The translations under genes and the position numbers were made by a program. A stretch of DNA of 64,000 nucleotides. Origin: a virus. Positions 3,419 through 57,609 of the stretch are shown piece by piece (the stretch's first letter is position 1; the number at the start of each line of letters is the position of its first letter). Where the stretch lies: positions 17,299 through 81,298 of IMG/VR virus record IMGVR_UViG_3300013212_000072; one strand, given 5' to 3'. Under the pieces are notes generated by a model that did not search any database, was not told the origin of the DNA, and saw only the letters and a list, made by a program, of their open reading frames with translations.

Positions 3419-3449
3419 AATATATAATGTACTAATAAAGTATATCGAT

Positions 3450-4834: not shown

Positions 4835-5092
4835 ATGGGAGATATTACAGGGGAGGAAAGAGATTCTCTGATGAGGTCCAGCTACTATATACTTACTAGA
4901 AATTTTACTAAAACCATTAATAGATTTGTTGTTTATAATGATGGTAATCACACAATCGATATTCCACATGGAATCGGACAGCGAAGCAAATTCGTAGATG
5001 TCCTAATAGAATATTTCGTTGAGTTAGAGGAATATGAAAAATGCGATTCGCTCAAGAAATTAAAAGAACTAGTCATAATGACTGGTGATTAA
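4835..5092 (+). CDS. Small protein with UVR-like motif
   Basis: FVELEEYEKCDSLKKL. Confidence 0.65.
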   Translation: MGDITGEERDSLMRSSYYILTRNFTKTINRFVVYNDGNHTIDIPHGIGQRSKFVDVLIEYFVELEEYEKCDSLKKLKELVIMTGD

Positions 5093-5108
5093 ATATATAC
5101 AAATTTGT

Positions 5109-5858
5109 ATGCAAAAAAGAACAGTGGAAAGTAAATCAAAAACAACTAAAGCAAAACCCACAACTACTAAAAATCCAATTGGACGTCCTAAAAAAACAGT
5201 AGTAAAAGAATTAGATTTAGTAGGAGTACAATTAAAGCCGTCTCAATATGATTATTTTGAAAAAATTAAAAAAAATGAAATAACATTCTGTTCTGGTCCT
5301 GCTGGAACTTCAAAAACATTTACGGCATGTTATACTTCCCTATGGTTGCTAGCAACAAAAGGAGTTTCAAAAATTATTTTATGTAAACCAATTCAAGAAT
5401 CCGGAGAAAAACTTGGATTCCTACCTGGAGATATTGCAGACAAGGTTGACCCTTACATGCAATCATATATTTCAAATTTTAAAAAAATAGTAGGTGATGA
5501 ATTAACCGAAGGTTTAATTGCTTCAGGTGCTATTGAATTTAAGCCACTTGCATTTATGAGGGGTGATACATTTGATGATGCGTTTATGATTCTAGATGAA
5601 GCGCAAAATGCTCCATGGAATGCTCTTATACTATTTATTACTAGAATGGGTAAAAATTCTAAAGTACTAGTATCTGGAGATATAAGTCAGTATGATATTG
5701 CAAAAGATAAGGTAACATTTCATAAATTCATAGAAATGTATAAACCAGTACATGGTGTTGGAGTTCATGAGTTTGGGATTAAAGACATTGTGCGTGCAAA
5801 AATATTACAAGAAATTGTAAGCATTTATGATAAATGGAAATCCGATAATAATCTTTAA
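5109..5858 (+). CDS. phoH: PhoH-family ATPase; the last ~55 codons appear to be a cassette-borne replacement
   Basis: GPAGTSKT Walker A, LGFLPGD, MRGDTF, ILDEAQN, TRMG, GDISQYD. ATG 5109 is preferred over GTG 5085 because AATATATA lies at 5092. Confidence 0.92.
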   Translation: MQKRTVESKSKTTKAKPTTTKNPIGRPKKTVVKELDLVGVQLKPSQYDYFEKIKKNEITFCSGPAGTSKTFTACYTSLWLLATKGVSKIILCKPIQESGEKLGFLPGDIADKVDPYMQSYISNFKKIVGDELTEGLIASGAIEFKPLAFMRGDTFDDAFMILDEAQNAPWNALILFITRMGKNSKVLVSGDISQYDIAKDKVTFHKFIEMYKPVHGVGVHEFGIKDIVRAKILQEIVSIYDKWKSDNNL

Positions 5859-5867
5859 TACATAAAT

Positions 5868-5980
5868 AAAGTTGCGTATGAGATGTTGATTTTGTAGTTA
5901 TTTTCATGAAATTTTCATATGCAACTTTTTTATAATTTTTTGGTGATATATAATCTAACTACAAATATATTATCAACATC
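5868..5980 (+). promoter_or_regulatory. Two-stem leader with late-promoter motif GATATATA (5945)
   Basis: Stem A 5868-5883/5913-5928. Stem B 5882-5900/5956-5980, ending at the ATG. Confidence 0.7.
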
Positions 5981-6775
5981 ATGAAAAACTACAAATATTA
6001 TTATGTTTATAGAATAACTAATACTTTACATAATAAACATTACTACGGCTACAGATCTTCTAATACCTCACCTTTATTAGATATTGGTATTAAATATTTT
6101 TCTTCGAGCAGAGATAAAGATTTTATAAAAGACCAAATTGAAAATCCAAATAATTATAAATATGTTGTTGTTAGGGTTTTCGAAAATAGGGAAGATGCAC
6201 ATAATTTAGAAATAGAACTGCATGCAAAATTCAATGTAGGTATTAATCCATCATTTTATAATAGAGCAAAAGCAACTAGTTCTAGATTTTCAATAACTGG
6301 AACTTCTCTATCAGATGAAACCAAAAAAAGAATGTCAATATCACATAAAGGCAGGATTGTTTCTCAAGAAACTAGAGATAAAATATCGAATGCTAACAAA
6401 GGAAAAAAGCATACGGATAAATTTAAAGATAAAATTAGAAATCGAGCGCAAGGAAATTCATATCATAAAAATAAAAAGCATACTGAAGATTCAAAGGTTA
6501 AGATGAGCAATTCACTTAAAGGAAAGAAAGCATGGAATAAAGGTATAAAGACTCCGGATGAAGTTAAAGCAAAACAATCATTAGCTAAATTAAATATGAC
6601 TCAAGAGCAAAAAGATAAAATGCATTCTTGGAAAAAAGGTCGACCATTATCTGAAGAAACTAAGAAAAAATTATCAAAACCTCAAACAAAGGTAGAATGT
6701 CTATATTGTAATAAAATTGGAGGTATTTCTGCAATGAAACAATATCATTTCGATAATTGCAAACAAAAAATATGA
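5981..6775 (+). CDS. Free-standing GIY-YIG homing endonuclease (Seg-like) with NUMOD3-type repeats and C-terminal CxxC..HFDNC
   Basis: YVYRITN..KHYYGYRS; repeated S.ETKKKMS/H T motifs; CLYC...HFDNCK. Confidence 0.88.
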   Translation: MKNYKYYYVYRITNTLHNKHYYGYRSSNTSPLLDIGIKYFSSSRDKDFIKDQIENPNNYKYVVVRVFENREDAHNLEIELHAKFNVGINPSFYNRAKATSSRFSITGTSLSDETKKRMSISHKGRIVSQETRDKISNANKGKKHTDKFKDKIRNRAQGNSYHKNKKHTEDSKVKMSNSLKGKKAWNKGIKTPDEVKAKQSLAKLNMTQEQKDKMHSWKKGRPLSEETKKKLSKPQTKVECLYCNKIGGISAMKQYHFDNCKQKI

Positions 6776-6941
6776 TATACCAAAAGCAAGTGCAGGTCTT
6801 CCAGGATTCATGCAGCTAATGAAGGGAATTAAAGGAACAGGAGAACATGTTTTTGAGAATAAAGATATTGTAAGAGCTAAAATACTTCAAGATGTTGTAG
6901 ACAGATACGACAAATGGAGAGTTGAAAATCCTGAAAAATAA
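6771..6941 (+). pseudogene. Stranded second (probably original) phoH 3' end
   Basis: Translates YDIPKASAGLPGFMQLMKGIKGTGEHVFENKDIVRAKILQDVVDRYDKWRVENPEK*. Ungapped and 26/55 identical (by-hand count) to PhoH 5691-5858. Confidence 0.88.
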
Positions 6942-6942
6942 G

Positions 6943-6969
6943 AAACTATCTGGAATCCATCTATATAAT
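6943..6969 (+). promoter_or_regulatory. AAAC-N17-TATAAT promoter
   Basis: aaac 6943-6946, tataat 6964-6969. Confidence 0.65.
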
Positions 6970-6986
6970 ACGTATAAAACATATAG

Positions 6987-7619
6987 ATGGAAACCAGACA
7001 AATACTACTTAAGCACTCCTACACAGGAGATGAATCAATTATAGAAATTGGTGTTGATGAGGCTGGCCGAGGTTCACTAAGTGGACCTGTTACGGTAGCC
7101 GCATGTATAATGCCATTTGGATTTGAAAACCCCCTGATCAAAGATTCAAAACTATTAAATGAGCAACAGCGAAAAGAGGCTCGTCGAATTATCGAGGAAA
7201 ACGCTATTGCATATCACATTGAACATATATCTCCCGAAGATATTGAGGCAACTAATATCTTAAAAGCAACCTTAATTGGAATGCAACGATGTTTAGAAGG
7301 TGTAAAGAATAATGCATTATTTGACTTTATATTAGTTGATGGCGACCAATTCCACGGATTTGAAGGAATTCCTTTTGAAACAGTAGTTGGAGGAGACAAT
7401 AAATATATTTCAATTGCTGCTGCAAGTATTCTAGCCAAAACCGAACGGGATTCAGTTATGAAAGATTTGGATATTGAGATTCCCGGATATGGCTGGAATT
7501 CAAATAAAGGGTATGGCACCGCGGCACATTTAATTGCAATTAAAGAATTAGGCCCAAGTAAGTATCATAGAATGAGTTTTATATCGCATTTGTTAACATC
7601 AACTAATTCTTTATTTTAA
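6987..7619 (+). CDS. rnhB: Ribonuclease HII
   Basis: GVDEAGRG, DSK, LVDG, GD..YISIAAASILAK..RD, NKGYGT..H, HRMSF. Confidence 0.95.
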   Translation: METRQILLKHSYTGDESIIEIGVDEAGRGSLSGPVTVAACIMPFGFENPLIKDSKLLNEQQRKEARRIIEENAIAYHIEHISPEDIEATNILKATLIGMQRCLEGVKNNALFDFILVDGDQFHGFEGIPFETVVGGDNKYISIAAASILAKTERDSVMKDLDIEIPGYGWNSNKGYGTAAHLIAIKELGPSKYHRMSFISHLLTSTNSLF

Positions 7620-7628
7620 AATATTTTT

Positions 7629-7749
7629 AAAGGGTCTCTACTTATACATATATTTTGTTTGTCGTTATTCTAAAATAGTTTGTCTAGAGGCCCTTTTTTC
7701 TTATGATGTGAGATATATAATATAACGACAAACAAAAATATTATATTAA
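7629..7749 (+). promoter_or_regulatory. Two-stem leader with GATATATA (7712)
   Basis: Stem A 7629-7640/7685-7696 plus T-run. Stem B 7653-7668/7722-7737 (16 bp perfect). Confidence 0.7.
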
Positions 7750-8392
7750 ATGTACATCTACAAGACAACAAACAACAAACAACATCAACAACAAAATTTA
7801 TATTGGACTATCTACTAGATTAGTAGAAGAGTCGAAAGATTACTTTGGTTCCGGATTAAAATTAAATAAAGCTATTCAAAAATATGGCAAAGAAAATTTT
7901 ACTAAAGAAATAATAGAAAGTGGTATAGCAAATAAAGAGTTATTAAATGCTCGAGAAGTGTATTGGATATCCTATTACAATTCGACTGATAAATATGTTG
8001 GATATAATATTTCAAATGGAGGTACTGGAGGAGATATGATAACTAATAATCCTAATAAAAATAAAATTTTAGAAAAAATATCTATTGCGGTAAAAAAATC
8101 ATGGAATGATGACCGTAAAGAACATTATAAAAAATTATGGGAAGGTTCTAACAATCCTAATTATGGTAAAGAATTCTCAGAGGAACACAGAAAAAAGATT
8201 AGAGAAGGTGGGATTGGAAATACTAATGCAGCAGTACCTTGCTCAAACGAAAAGAAAAATAAGATTAGTAAAAAATTAAAAGGAATTAAACAGATTGTGG
8301 TTGAATGTCCACATTGTAAGTTAACCGGAGGAAACCCTATAATGAGAAGATACCATTTTGATAATTGCAAGCAAATAAAAAATAAAAAATGA
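7750..8392 (+). pseudogene. GIY-YIG homing endonuclease frameshifted by a 7-nt tandem duplication
   Basis: ATG 7750 gives MYIYKTTNN. AAACAAC is duplicated (7770-7776, 7777-7783). Removing one copy gives INNKIYIG...YFGSG in frame with ORF 7958-8392 (CPHC...HFDNCK). Confidence 0.85.
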
Positions 8393-8733
8393 GATCGTTA
8401 ATTTATGGTATTCTATTGTTCCTATTTGGACAATCGTTTATATGGTTCCAAACAAACGGACAGTTTATGTGGCCATGGTTTAAAAAGAATCCACTCCTAG
8501 TTGCAATAATTGGAGGGTCTACAATATCATACGTTTTTATAGAGGCAACCAGAATGATTGCAGAATATTATGACGGACAATTATGGCCTGGAAGATTTAT
8601 TGGATTTTCAATGGGCATGATTTCATTCTCTATATTAACATATTACATAATGAATGAGCCACTAAACGCAAAGACCATAATCTGTTTGATACTTTCATTA
8701 GCCCTAATCTGTGTCCAAATATTTTGGAAATAA
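8389..8733 (+). CDS. Small 4-TM membrane protein (DMT/SMR-like)
   Basis: Four hydrophobic segments in 114 aa; NEPL..K motif before the last TM. Confidence 0.6.
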   Translation: MRSLIYGILLFLFGQSFIWFQTNGQFMWPWFKKNPLLVAIIGGSTISYVFIEATRMIAEYYDGQLWPGRFIGFSMGMISFSILTYYIMNEPLNAKTIICLILSLALICVQIFWK

Positions 8734-9962: not shown

Positions 9963-10871
9963 ATGGGAGCTAACTACGGATATTGTTGTATAAATCTAAC
10001 TCTAGACAAGAGTGGTATTAAAATCGGGCGTTCAATGATTAAAAAGACCTTTGACGCAAAAGGTATCAAATACGCTGGAGAACTTGCCGAGGCAAATATC
10101 CGTGACATGATAGAAATTATTAAATGGAATCATAAAAACGGTGTTACATTATATCGTATGTCCTCTAGTATGTTTCCATGGATGTCAGAATACGAGCTTA
10201 CTGATTTGCCAAATTGGTCAACAATTTCAAATCTACTAAAGGGTGCTGGCACACTAGTGCAAAAATACGGACAGCGTGTTGGTTTTCATCCTGGACAGTT
10301 TTGTGTACTTCCAAGTCCAAATCAAAAAACCGTAGACAATTCTATTAAAGAACTCGACCAACATGCATTTATTCTTGATACTATGGGTCTACCGGTTAAT
10401 CAACAATACTCTATGAATATTCATGTTGGTGGTTCTTACGGAGATAAAGAAGCTGCAATCCTAAGATTCATTGAAAACTTTAAATTGTTATCTCCTTCTG
10501 CACAGTCTCGTTTAATCCTTGAAAACGACGATAAACCTGCGCAATATTCGGTAAGCGACCTTTACCGAATCTATCAAGCGGTTGGTACGCCTATCACCTT
10601 TGATTACCATCACCATCGATGTTACAATGACCCGATGTCCGAACAAGATGCTCTTCTTTTGGCAGCTCGTACTTGGCCTAAAGGTATTCGCCAATTGTGT
10701 CACTACTCAAGCGCTAAAAAATTACACGAGGATGCTTCTGTTATTATAAGAGCACATGCTGATTATTTGTATGAATTTATTGATACTTACGGTATGGAAA
10801 TAGACATTGAACTTGAAGTAAAAATGAAAGAGCTAGCTTTATTAAAATATTTTAAAGATTACTTACATTAA
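9963..10871 (+). CDS. uvsE: UV-damage endonuclease (UvsE/UvdE); last ~17 codons cassette-borne
   Basis: GYCCIN, YRMSS.MFP, HPGQF.VL.SP, NIHVGG.YG, RLILENDD, FDYHHH, HYS, HAD, ELEVK.KELAL. Confidence 0.92.
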   Translation: MGANYGYCCINLTLDKSGIKIGRSMIKKTFDAKGIKYAGELAEANIRDMIEIIKWNHKNGVTLYRMSSSMFPWMSEYELTDLPNWSTISNLLKGAGTLVQKYGQRVGFHPGQFCVLPSPNQKTVDNSIKELDQHAFILDTMGLPVNQQYSMNIHVGGSYGDKEAAILRFIENFKLLSPSAQSRLILENDDKPAQYSVSDLYRIYQAVGTPITFDYHHHRCYNDPMSEQDALLLAARTWPKGIRQLCHYSSAKKLHEDASVIIRAHADYLYEFIDTYGMEIDIELEVKMKELALLKYFKDYLH

Positions 10872-11704
10872 AATCAATAAATTTCAATAAGTAAGGTAAG
10901 GCAAAAGATATATAAAGTAAAGTAAAATAAACTATGTATACTAGAAACTGTCCTACGTGCAATAAAGAAATTTCATATTCAAATAAAGGTAATGCAGATA
11001 GAGCTATAAATGGTAAAAAGGTTTGTAAATCATGCTCGGTTAAACTTAGAAATAATGACAAAACATATTTAAACAAAATATCTGAATCTAGAAAAAAATA
11101 CTTTAAAGAATTGTCTGAAGAAGATAAAGAAATTTGGAAGTCTAATAACTCAAAAGCTCAAAAGAAAGCATGGGAGAATAAAAGTGATGAAGACAGAGAA
11201 AAATATGCAAAAAATGTAAGTGAACAATCAAAAGAAAGATGGAGTGACCCTGATTATACAGAAAGAGTTTCAACATCTATGAAAGAAAACCCATGGCCTA
11301 AAAATAAAACTCCTGAAGAAATTATTGAAATAAATAAAAGAACAACCACTACTAAATATGAAAAGTACGGAACATTATTTCCAGGAGGAGGAAACAAACA
11401 AAAGAAAACTATAATAAAAGGATTGATATGTGAAAGTTCATTTGAGTTAAAATATATTGAATCTTTAATTTCTAAAAATATAGAGTTGCCAAAAAATGCA
11501 AAACGTATTGAAACTCCATTTGGATATTATACTCCAGATTTTGAATATGAAGACAGATTTATAGAAATAAAGTGTGAGTTTACCTATAAGGTTTTAATTG
11601 GAGAATCTTCATTTAGTAAAAGTGGAAATTATAATCCAAAGCAATTAAATAAAATAAAGTGGGTTAGTGAAAATATTAAAAATGTAGAAATAATAGTTCT
11701 TTAG
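10818..11704 (+). mobile_element. Endonuclease cassette 3: replacement uvsE 3' end + promoter + PD-(D/E)XK nuclease gene
   Basis: Deleting 10819-11704 restores an in-frame uvsE ending ELEAKSKELALQKYQKEYILCEK*. Confidence 0.75.
10934..11704 (+). CDS. Zn-ribbon + PD-(D/E)XK putative homing endonuclease
   Basis: CPTC...CKSC, helical repeats, SSFE...YTPDFEY...FIEIK. GATATATA at 10907. Confidence 0.75.
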   Translation: MYTRNCPTCNKEISYSNKGNADRAINGKKVCKSCSVKLRNNDKTYLNKISESRKKYFKELSEEDKEIWKSNNSKAQKKAWENKSDEDREKYAKNVSEQSKERWSDPDYTERVSTSMKENPWPKNKTPEEIIEINKRTTTTKYEKYGTLFPGGGNKQKKTIIKGLICESSFELKYIESLISKNIELPKNAKRIETPFGYYTPDFEYEDRFIEIKCEFTYKVLIGESSFSKSGNYNPKQLNKIKWVSENIKNVEIIVL

Positions 11705-11766
11705 CAAAATCAAAAGAATTGGCTCTTCAAAAATACCAAAAAGAATATATACTCTGTGAAAAATAA
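11704..11766 (+). pseudogene. Stranded second (probably original) uvsE 3' end
   Basis: AKSKELALQKYQKEYILCEK* aligns without gaps to VKMKELALLKYFKDYLH*. Confidence 0.8.
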
Positions 11767-56895: not shown

Positions 56896-57609
56896 ATGTA
56901 CCATTACATATACAGGGTACCCTCGTTGATTGAAAGTAAACATTACTATGGATTACGAAGTTCTAAAGTTGAACCTAAATTAGATTTAGGAATTAAATAC
57001 TTTACAAGTTCTACTGATTTAGAATTTAGAAATGATTTTATAAAAAATCCGCACAAATATAAATGTGTTATTGTTAGAAAATTTACATCTAGAAATGAAG
57101 CTGTGATATTTGAAATATTTTTACATAATAGATTTAATGTAAAGAACCATCCTTCTTTTTATAATAGATCAAATCAATCAGCAAAAGGATTTGATAGATC
57201 TGGAATTTTAACAAGTAAAGATACTAAAAAACTTATATCTAATTCTATAAAGGGTATTATTCGTTCCGAAGAAACTAAGAAAAAGATGTCAGAATCTAGA
57301 AAAGGATATATTATGCCAGTTTCTTCTAGAATAAAATTAAGTAACTCTAAAAAAGGCACTGCGCATTCCGAAGAAACTAAGAAAAAGATGTCTGATTCGA
57401 GTAAAGGTCAAATTATGTCTCCGGAAGCTAGAGATAAAATATCTAATGCTCTTTGTAATAAAGCAAAGACAAAAGAACATGCTCTTAATATCTCAAAATC
57501 TCTTATTGGTTTTAAATATAAAGAAAAAACCTGCGTACATTGTGGTCTTACCGGTAGAGGTGGGAACGTGTCTAGATTTCATTTTGATAATTGTAAAAAT
57601 AAGCAGTAA
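56896..57609 (+). CDS. GIY-YIG homing endonuclease, paralogue of 5981
   Basis: HYIYRV...KHYYGLRSS, DLGIKYF.SS, SEETKKKMS x2, CVHC...HFDNCK. Confidence 0.88.
   Translation: MYHYIYRVPSLIESKHYYGLRSSKVEPKLDLGIKYFTSSTDLEFRNDFIKNPHKYKCVIVRKFTSRNEAVIFEIFLHNRFNVKNHPSFYNRSNQSAKGFDRSGILTSKDTKKLISNSIKGIIRSEETKKKMSESRKGYIMPVSSRIKLSNSKKGTAHSEETKKKMSDSSKGQIMSPEARDKISNALCNKAKTKEHALNISKSLIGFKYKEKTCVHCGLTGRGGNVSRFHFDNCKNKQ

Follow-up and report, generated by a model that had tools for sequence, protein, structure and literature searches.

The window analyzed here is the whole stretch of 64,000 nt that corresponds to positions 17,299-81,298 of the IMG/VR record IMGVR_UViG_3300013212_000072, a metagenome-assembled sequence of an uncultured freshwater giant phage. 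The record spans 81 kb, with a completeness estimated by CheckV at 28%. The GC content of the window is 31%, and almost all of its long ORFs lie on the + strand. Sequencing runs that contain window sequence are lake and freshwater metagenomes. A nucleotide search of GenBank phages with positions 5000-7700 returned distant matches only and no close relative. phoH (5109-5858) follows a dnaJ-like gene and small ORFs. Downstream of it come a homing endonuclease gene (HEG; 5981-6775), a 56-codon phoH-like stretch (6771-6941), rnhB (6987-7619), another nuclease gene, and a small ORF with a membrane-protein-like product. The features that matter for the argument are the following, where L015 and L010 are related phage loci.

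5109..5858, + strand: intact chimeric phoH, 249 aa from the ATG at 5109, with an alternative GTG at 5085
5109..5610, + strand: resident 5' two-thirds of phoH, up to the Walker-B codons ILDEAQNA, matching L015 in every bin
5611..5858, + strand: imported "A-type" phoH 3' module, codons 168-249, where identity to L015 drops
5868..5931, + strand: terminator-like cassette hairpin (5868-5927) with stem covariation, then a T-run, directly 3' of the imported phoH stop
5946..5965, + strand: promoter-like ATATATAAT (5946-5954), an enriched motif, then TAACTACAAA (5956-5965), complementary to the hairpin loop
5981..6775, + strand: free-standing GIY-YIG/NUMOD3 HEG, 264 aa, assigned by NUMOD3, PHROG 314, and fold matches
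6769..6941, + strand: stranded resident 3' end of phoH (the orphan), 56 codons starting at 6771 and a stop, out of the HEG frame, matching the L015 and L010 tails
6942..7619, + strand: resident rnhB (Pfam RNase_HII, 1.2e-35) with its leader, in which a hairpin contains TATATAAT and the ATG; collinear with L015 at 96%

The original prediction, made from the letters of the window, held that phoH has two C-termini, one on each side of a GIY-YIG gene. Both tails are present where they were placed, and they are colinear: BLASTP of 5691-5855 against 6771-6938 gives 26/53 identities with 0 gaps (E 7e-18). The full phoH matches Pfam PhoH (PF02562) over profile positions 7-205 of 205 (E 6.6e-60; 202.6 bits vs. 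a cut-off of 27). The orphan matches the last 45 positions of the same profile (161-205 of 205) with an E of 0.005, below the gathering cut-off. A PhoH search of the phage's own record recovered both copies. Several finer points of the prediction hold as well. The orphan is free of internal stops, abuts rnhB (its end lies 45 nt before the rnhB start), and supplies the stop codon of the HEG, whose TGA at 6773-6775 overlaps the orphan's TAT GAT at 6771-6776. The orphan frame is one base off the HEG frame, and a run of six A at 6765-6770 lies just before it. The 8-nt TATGATAT common to both tails consists of homologous Y-D-I codons and nothing more.

Which of the two tails is resident can be read from relatives that lack the HEG. 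PhoH and RNase HII queries were used to fetch 115 related loci from IMG/VR, which were compared by tblastn. The site is empty in about 70 of the 115 loci, where rnhB follows phoH directly after a gap of about 48 nt with no nuclease gene; the spacing between the orphan and rnhB equals that between the phoH stop and rnhB in these HEG-free relatives. Filled alleles occur in the window, L003, L024, L120, and L142. In the nearest relatives, the phoH body is 90-96% and RnhB 90-95% identical to the window at the amino acid level, and the phoH tail is 93-100% identical to the orphan vs. 47-51% to the attached tail. The nearest relative, L015, has an empty site in which the phoH tail adjoins rnhB. Nucleotide identity between the window and L015 is 96-100% over 5109-5610 and falls abruptly to 50-67% from 5611 to the phoH stop. 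The orphan matches the L015 phoH tail at 169/171 nt and the L010 tail with 100% amino acid identity, and L015 4581-5409 aligns to window 6769-7597 at 96%. Because the tail of the HEG-free L015 matches the orphan and not the attached tail, the orphan is the resident phoH end by this sequence comparison, as had been predicted.

The same alignments delimit the imported DNA. The imported block runs from about 5611 to 6768 and starts directly after the Walker-B codons ILDEAQNA. The prediction had set its start at 5691; this position is right for the duplicated tails, but the foreign DNA begins 80 nt further upstream. The only resident DNA that is missing is the 80 nt equivalent to 5611-5690. Since homology to L015 begins at 6769, the last HEG codon and its stop lie in resident-derived DNA. 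Measured against the split from L015, whose flanks are 96-100% identical, the event is a recent one, in agreement with the predicted recency. Only two differences separate the orphan from the L015 tail, so dN/dS is uninformative on its decay.

The nuclease itself is assigned from several lines of evidence. Four stretches match Pfam NUMOD3 (E 1.1e-16), the protein matches PHROG 314 "homing endonuclease" (2.5e-31), and its DNA-binding region weakly matches the I-TevI DNA-binding domain (1i3j). Residues 1-105 were modeled with AlphaFold from an alignment of 13 homologues, with a pLDDT of 81. The best PDB matches to this model in Foldseek are the I-TevI catalytic domain structures 1mk0 and 1ln0 (E 1.5e-3, probability 1.0, TM 0.59-0.63), followed by UvrC GIY-YIG domains. 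Sequence profiles for GIY-YIG in Pfam stay below cut-off (PF01541, E 1.1; SegE_GIY-YIG, E 0.066), and a profile made from the 13 homologues matched no PDB GIY-YIG chain by sequence. The GIY-YIG membership is thus one of modeled fold and motifs. Residues Y8, Y10, Y21, Y22, G23, R25, E77, and N94 are invariant in the 13 homologues. We take their spacing to resemble that of Y6/Y17/R27/E75/N90 in I-TevI. An intron was also considered for the region; an Rfam search over 5000-8600 at E up to 1 returned two sub-threshold microRNA-like hairpins and no intron of either group I or group II.

The attached tail belongs to a module that recurs in other phages. It is 76-78% identical at the amino acid level to the tails of L003, L024, L142, and L025/L026. 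In the tail tree, the A-type tails of the window, L003, L024, L142, and L025 form one clade on a long stem with support of 100/99. The tree of the phoH body distributes the same phages differently, with A-type carriers scattered among B-type (cassette-free) phages. The window protein is identical to that of L015 within a clade of support 97/91; L003 groups with L020, L024 with L028/L030/L036, and L025 lies near L027/L033. The body-tree position of L142 was not used, as its 5' part is frameshifted or mosaic and forms an unreliable long branch. The left boundary is the same in 5/5 carrier lineages, each of which diverges from its nearest B-type relative just after CAAAATGC. Relative to the B-type module, the A-type module is recoded in two patches, which closely follow ILDEAQNA and YDI, respectively.

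Among the A-type tails, dN/dS is 0.03-0.18, and the module is therefore under purifying selection; it is presumably functional. The attached tail of the window has a long terminal branch (0.33) and a dN above that of the other A-type tails, and some relaxed selection may have acted on it. In L003, L024, L142, and the more distant L120, the same HEG, 60-78% identical at the amino acid level, lies between phoH and rnhB. In L025 and L026 (4529-4760), neither a HEG nor a remnant separates the A-type module from the rnhB leader, which follows it directly, and the phoH bodies of both nest among those of B-type phages. The module can therefore persist or move without the nuclease. These two alleles probably arose by loss of the HEG after an invasion that left the recoded end behind, and they also suggest transfer of the module alone as an alternative.

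The junction between the HEG and the second phoH tail has its own distribution. L003, L024, L142, and L120 have no 56-codon orphan. Instead, the HEG frame continues across a ...CK|W junction, which is constant, into a trimmed second phoH tail that retains its final 6-9 codons (e.g., CK-WRIDNPEK); the rnhB leader comes next. The remnant and the intergenic DNA downstream match the carrier's own B-type kin, such as L024 vs. L030/L036/L028 (27/27 nt) and L003 vs. L020. A database search found diverse HEG ends after CK, including YNDV, YQNG, RVDNPEK, and HRLGNNL. P0001, a HEG product from other samples that is known as a protein alone, is 92% identical to that of the window and has the same ...CKQKI end. 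Contigs from other lakes contain the same HEG-orphan junction with 1.6-5% nucleotide divergence. In another database protein, P0014 (215 aa), the phoH body up to ILDEAQNA is fused, with the frame kept, to the part of the HEG that extends from about residue 121 to CKWRIDNPEK. P0014 resembles the product of a deletion allele, one that would have destroyed both phoH and the nuclease domain, and its deletion endpoint is the same position as the left breakpoint of the window.

A comparable arrangement is known from the WHO elements at yeast FBA1. In these elements, the endonuclease gene lies 3' of its target, and homing swaps the target 3' end for a divergent resistant copy (Coughlan et al., 2020; PMC7282813). 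The drop in identity coincides with the cleavage site, and trees of the 5' and 3' parts conflict (PMC7282813). The target fragment behind the donor nuclease provides right-hand homology, and after homing its place is taken by the recipient's own 3' end (PMC7282813).

The reading that we favor, with a probability of about 0.85, is that a phage nearly identical to L015 received a mobile cassette in its phoH by homing. The cassette would comprise the recoded phoH 3' module (the last 82 codons), the terminator-like hairpin, the promoter-like motif with its leader, and the GIY-YIG/NUMOD3 HEG. The nuclease would cleave B-type phoH in the missing 80 nt, at the Walker-B codons or shortly after them, and the break would be repaired from a cassette-bearing phage co-infecting the same cell. 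At the left end, recombination would fall in the conserved ILDEAQNA stretch; at the right end, the recipient would pair with the phoH fragment behind the donor's HEG, so that the orphan would serve as a homology arm. The product would be a chimeric but intact phoH, presumably resistant to cutting, followed by the HEG, with the recipient's old 3' end stranded before rnhB. A cut next to the ILDEAQNA codons is likely, because the missing 5611-5690 brackets the break and the invariant left boundary parallels the drop in identity at the WHO cleavage site. HEG scans of IMG/VR and metagenome contigs did not find the true donor; the cassettes with context that they recovered have at most 78% amino acid identity, and the nearest A-type DNA found is 75-79% identical.

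The strongest alternative concerns the right end. It proposes a one-off illegitimate repair in which only the left end formed by homologous recombination and the right end formed by microhomology (AATATGA) at the HEG stop, making the orphan junction new in this lineage. The original prediction also regarded the join as a microhomology junction made in this event. Such a repair would account for a HEG stop inside resident-derived DNA, and one-sided homing with microhomology junctions has been demonstrated experimentally in T4 (Parker et al., 1999, as cited in PMC2988022). Moreover, the three HEGs of the family in the window have similar short tails after CK (QKI, QIKNKK, and NKQ), and QKI could be a native end that shares a few bases with the target. 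However, the CKQKI end recurs in P0001, whose protein is 8% divergent, and the junction recurs in other lakes at the divergence given above; the junction therefore predates entry into the L015-like background. Together with the constant CK|W and its recipient-type remnants in four lineages, these shared junctions do not bear out a new join. They make it more likely that the junction travels with the cassette and that the orphan sequence is renewed from each recipient. A constant junction filled with recipient-type sequence is also what the WHO model predicts, which favors cassette homing over a new microhomology join. We consider one-off repair unlikely, though microhomology may have produced the junction once, earlier in the history of the cassette.

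A chimera assembled from two strains that occur together, one carrying the HEG and the A-type tail and the other lacking the HEG, has very little going for it. The window is metagenome-assembled, and its left breakpoint falls in conserved sequence, which could let an assembler jump from one strain to the other. However, the right junction joins non-homologous DNA, the HEG end and mid-phoH, and so has no shared k-mer origin. Furthermore, assembled Logan contigs cover the region in four metagenomes, from lakes or other freshwater and from separate studies, and some of these contigs bridge each junction. Contigs from X3 (5490-5848), X5 (5483-5783), and X2 (5586-5790) span the left junction at 5611, and contigs from X5 (6577-6824, 4 differences) and X3 (6731-6869, 7 differences) span the right junction at 6769. 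Under 50% of the sampled words are covered by the runs X1-X17, and relatives are present in many of these runs; stretches that they leave uncovered carry no meaning. Because independent lake metagenomes bridge both junctions, an assembly chimera is not the explanation. Equally improbable is an in-place tandem duplication of the phoH tail with later divergence and a separate HEG, or a two-tail gene that uses both ends by splicing or frameshifting. In favor of these readings, both tails are open reading frames, and slippage by +1 on the A run at 6765-6770 might conceivably fuse the HEG and the orphan. Against them, the orphan shares about 99% identity with the functional tail of a relative, the attached tail falls in a different clade that occurs in other lineages, no intron family matches 5000-8600, and an orphan trimmed to 6-9 codons in other lineages is dispensable for PhoH.

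Within the cassette, the DNA between the imported phoH stop and the HEG contains candidate expression signals. The stem of the hairpin covaries across five cassettes, with compensatory changes in 8 pairs. Its loop contains TTTGTAGTTA (5891-5900), which is complementary to TAACTACAAA, and L120 has a compensatory G/C double change in this loop-leader pairing. The motif ATATATAAT occurs at 15 sites in the window vs. 5.3 expected (about threefold), mostly on the + strand and a few tens of bases before start codons; examples are the sites at 3420, 12620, 19579, 23792, 40428, 46663, and 49927. ATATATAAT is a candidate phage promoter motif. A scan for sigma-70 promoters and terminators performed no better than on shuffled sequence, and the loop of the phoH hairpin is too long for the scanner. 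The hairpin and the loop-leader pairing around ATATATAAT may form a switch that limits HEG translation to the cassette's own transcripts. The predicted leader would in this respect resemble the control of T4 HEGs, in which read-through transcripts are untranslated and late transcripts are translated. The resident rnhB leader has a structure of its own. An inverted repeat at 6950-6990 (CCATCTATAT ... ATATAGATGG) holds a TATAAT-like motif in its loop and the ATG in its 3' arm; the arms differ in sequence yet remain complementary in L020/L003 and L120.

Two further loci in the window show the same gene-end replacement as phoH, which speaks for the favored reading. The first is uvdE (9963-10871; Pfam UvdE, 8e-60), which has a divergent attached tail in a region (10819-11766) with two ends. 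A nuclease-like ORF of 256 aa (10934-11704) lies 3' of uvdE; it contains CxxC pairs and weakly matches a restriction-endonuclease-like family (PF19778, E 0.005). It is followed at 11704-11766 by an orphan of about 20 codons that is identical to the L015 uvdE tail, and window positions 10850-11703 are absent from L015. The second is rnhB, which is followed by a second GIY-YIG/NUMOD3 HEG (7620-8392). The N-terminus of this HEG is frameshifted in an ACAACAA-rich tract, with MYIYKTTNN in one frame and INNKIYIGLSTR in another. The block at 7598-8389 is absent from 6/6 relatives compared. Within it, the last 7 rnhB codons are replaced, and the HEG stop TGA is the resident rnhB stop; the gene after this HEG now starts with ATG in place of TTG. 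A third HEG of the phoH-cassette family lies elsewhere in the window (56896-57609), with an N-terminal domain that is 50% identical, NUMOD3 repeats, and the end HFDNCKNKQ.

A broader generalization, to which we give even odds, is that aquatic giant phages carry a WHO-like class of homing element. Each element would be made up of a recoded, resistant gene end, a terminator, a free-standing endonuclease, and a promoter of late type equipped with a translational switch. The orphan would be a right homology arm that is renewed at each transfer, and the left boundary would mark the cleavage site. Several nuclease families in one genome, at phoH, rnhB, and uvdE, would then drive mosaic evolution of conserved phage genes.

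The gene phoH is a widely used marker for the diversity of aquatic phages. Because its last third is mobile and recoded, trees of the 3' part can reflect how a selfish element evolved instead of how the phage did. Filled, empty, trimmed, and HEG-lost alleles occur side by side at this locus. The locus also yields a precise prediction of the cut site, and homing by gene-end replacement in phages is thus directly testable. In addition, short "hypothetical" ORFs beside phage nucleases can be stranded ends of neighboring genes.

The layout is established for fungal mitochondria and yeast and is rarely described in phages. As described in PMC3630166, which cites Paquin et al. (1994), fungal mitochondrial mORFs form gene hybrids in atp6 of Allomyces macrogynus and in atp6, atp9, cox2, and nad3 of Glomus. 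They share with the phoH cassette the insertion of a foreign C-terminal end together with an endonuclease ORF, a divergent inserted end, and a native C-terminus downstream that is nearly identical to that of a close relative. However, several fungal mORFs are in frame and co-transcribed, whereas the imported phoH end has its own stop, followed by a hairpin with T-run and a promoter-like motif before the HEG.

Phage precedents share other features. In T4-like phages, free-standing HEGs of the seg/mob type home without an intron and co-convert their flanks (PMC2988022). The HEG islands of ICP1 contain fragments of essential genes that are proposed to be recombination substrates (PMC10055350). 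The phoH cassette resembles both in that a free-standing GIY-YIG HEG lies between conserved genes, with flanking co-conversion and gene fragments beside HEGs. Unlike the window, the T4 and ICP1 reports contain no defined, recurrent module of recoded gene end that travels with the HEG behind a fixed boundary and strands the resident end, and a literature search turned up no phage study that explicitly describes a gene-end module of this recurrent kind.

WHO elements are a further close parallel, with several differences. WHO proteins are intein-like (LAGLIDADG/Hint plus a zinc finger), whereas the phoH nuclease is a GIY-YIG/NUMOD3 protein. The host here is a phage, so homing would take place during co-infection instead of meiosis. 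No tandem cluster of old HEGs is present at phoH. Nevertheless, the two systems have in common a nuclease gene 3' of its target, replacement of the target 3' end, a sharp drop in identity, conflicting trees, and an old end that persists downstream; resistance of the new end, part of the WHO model, would by analogy complete the likeness at phoH.
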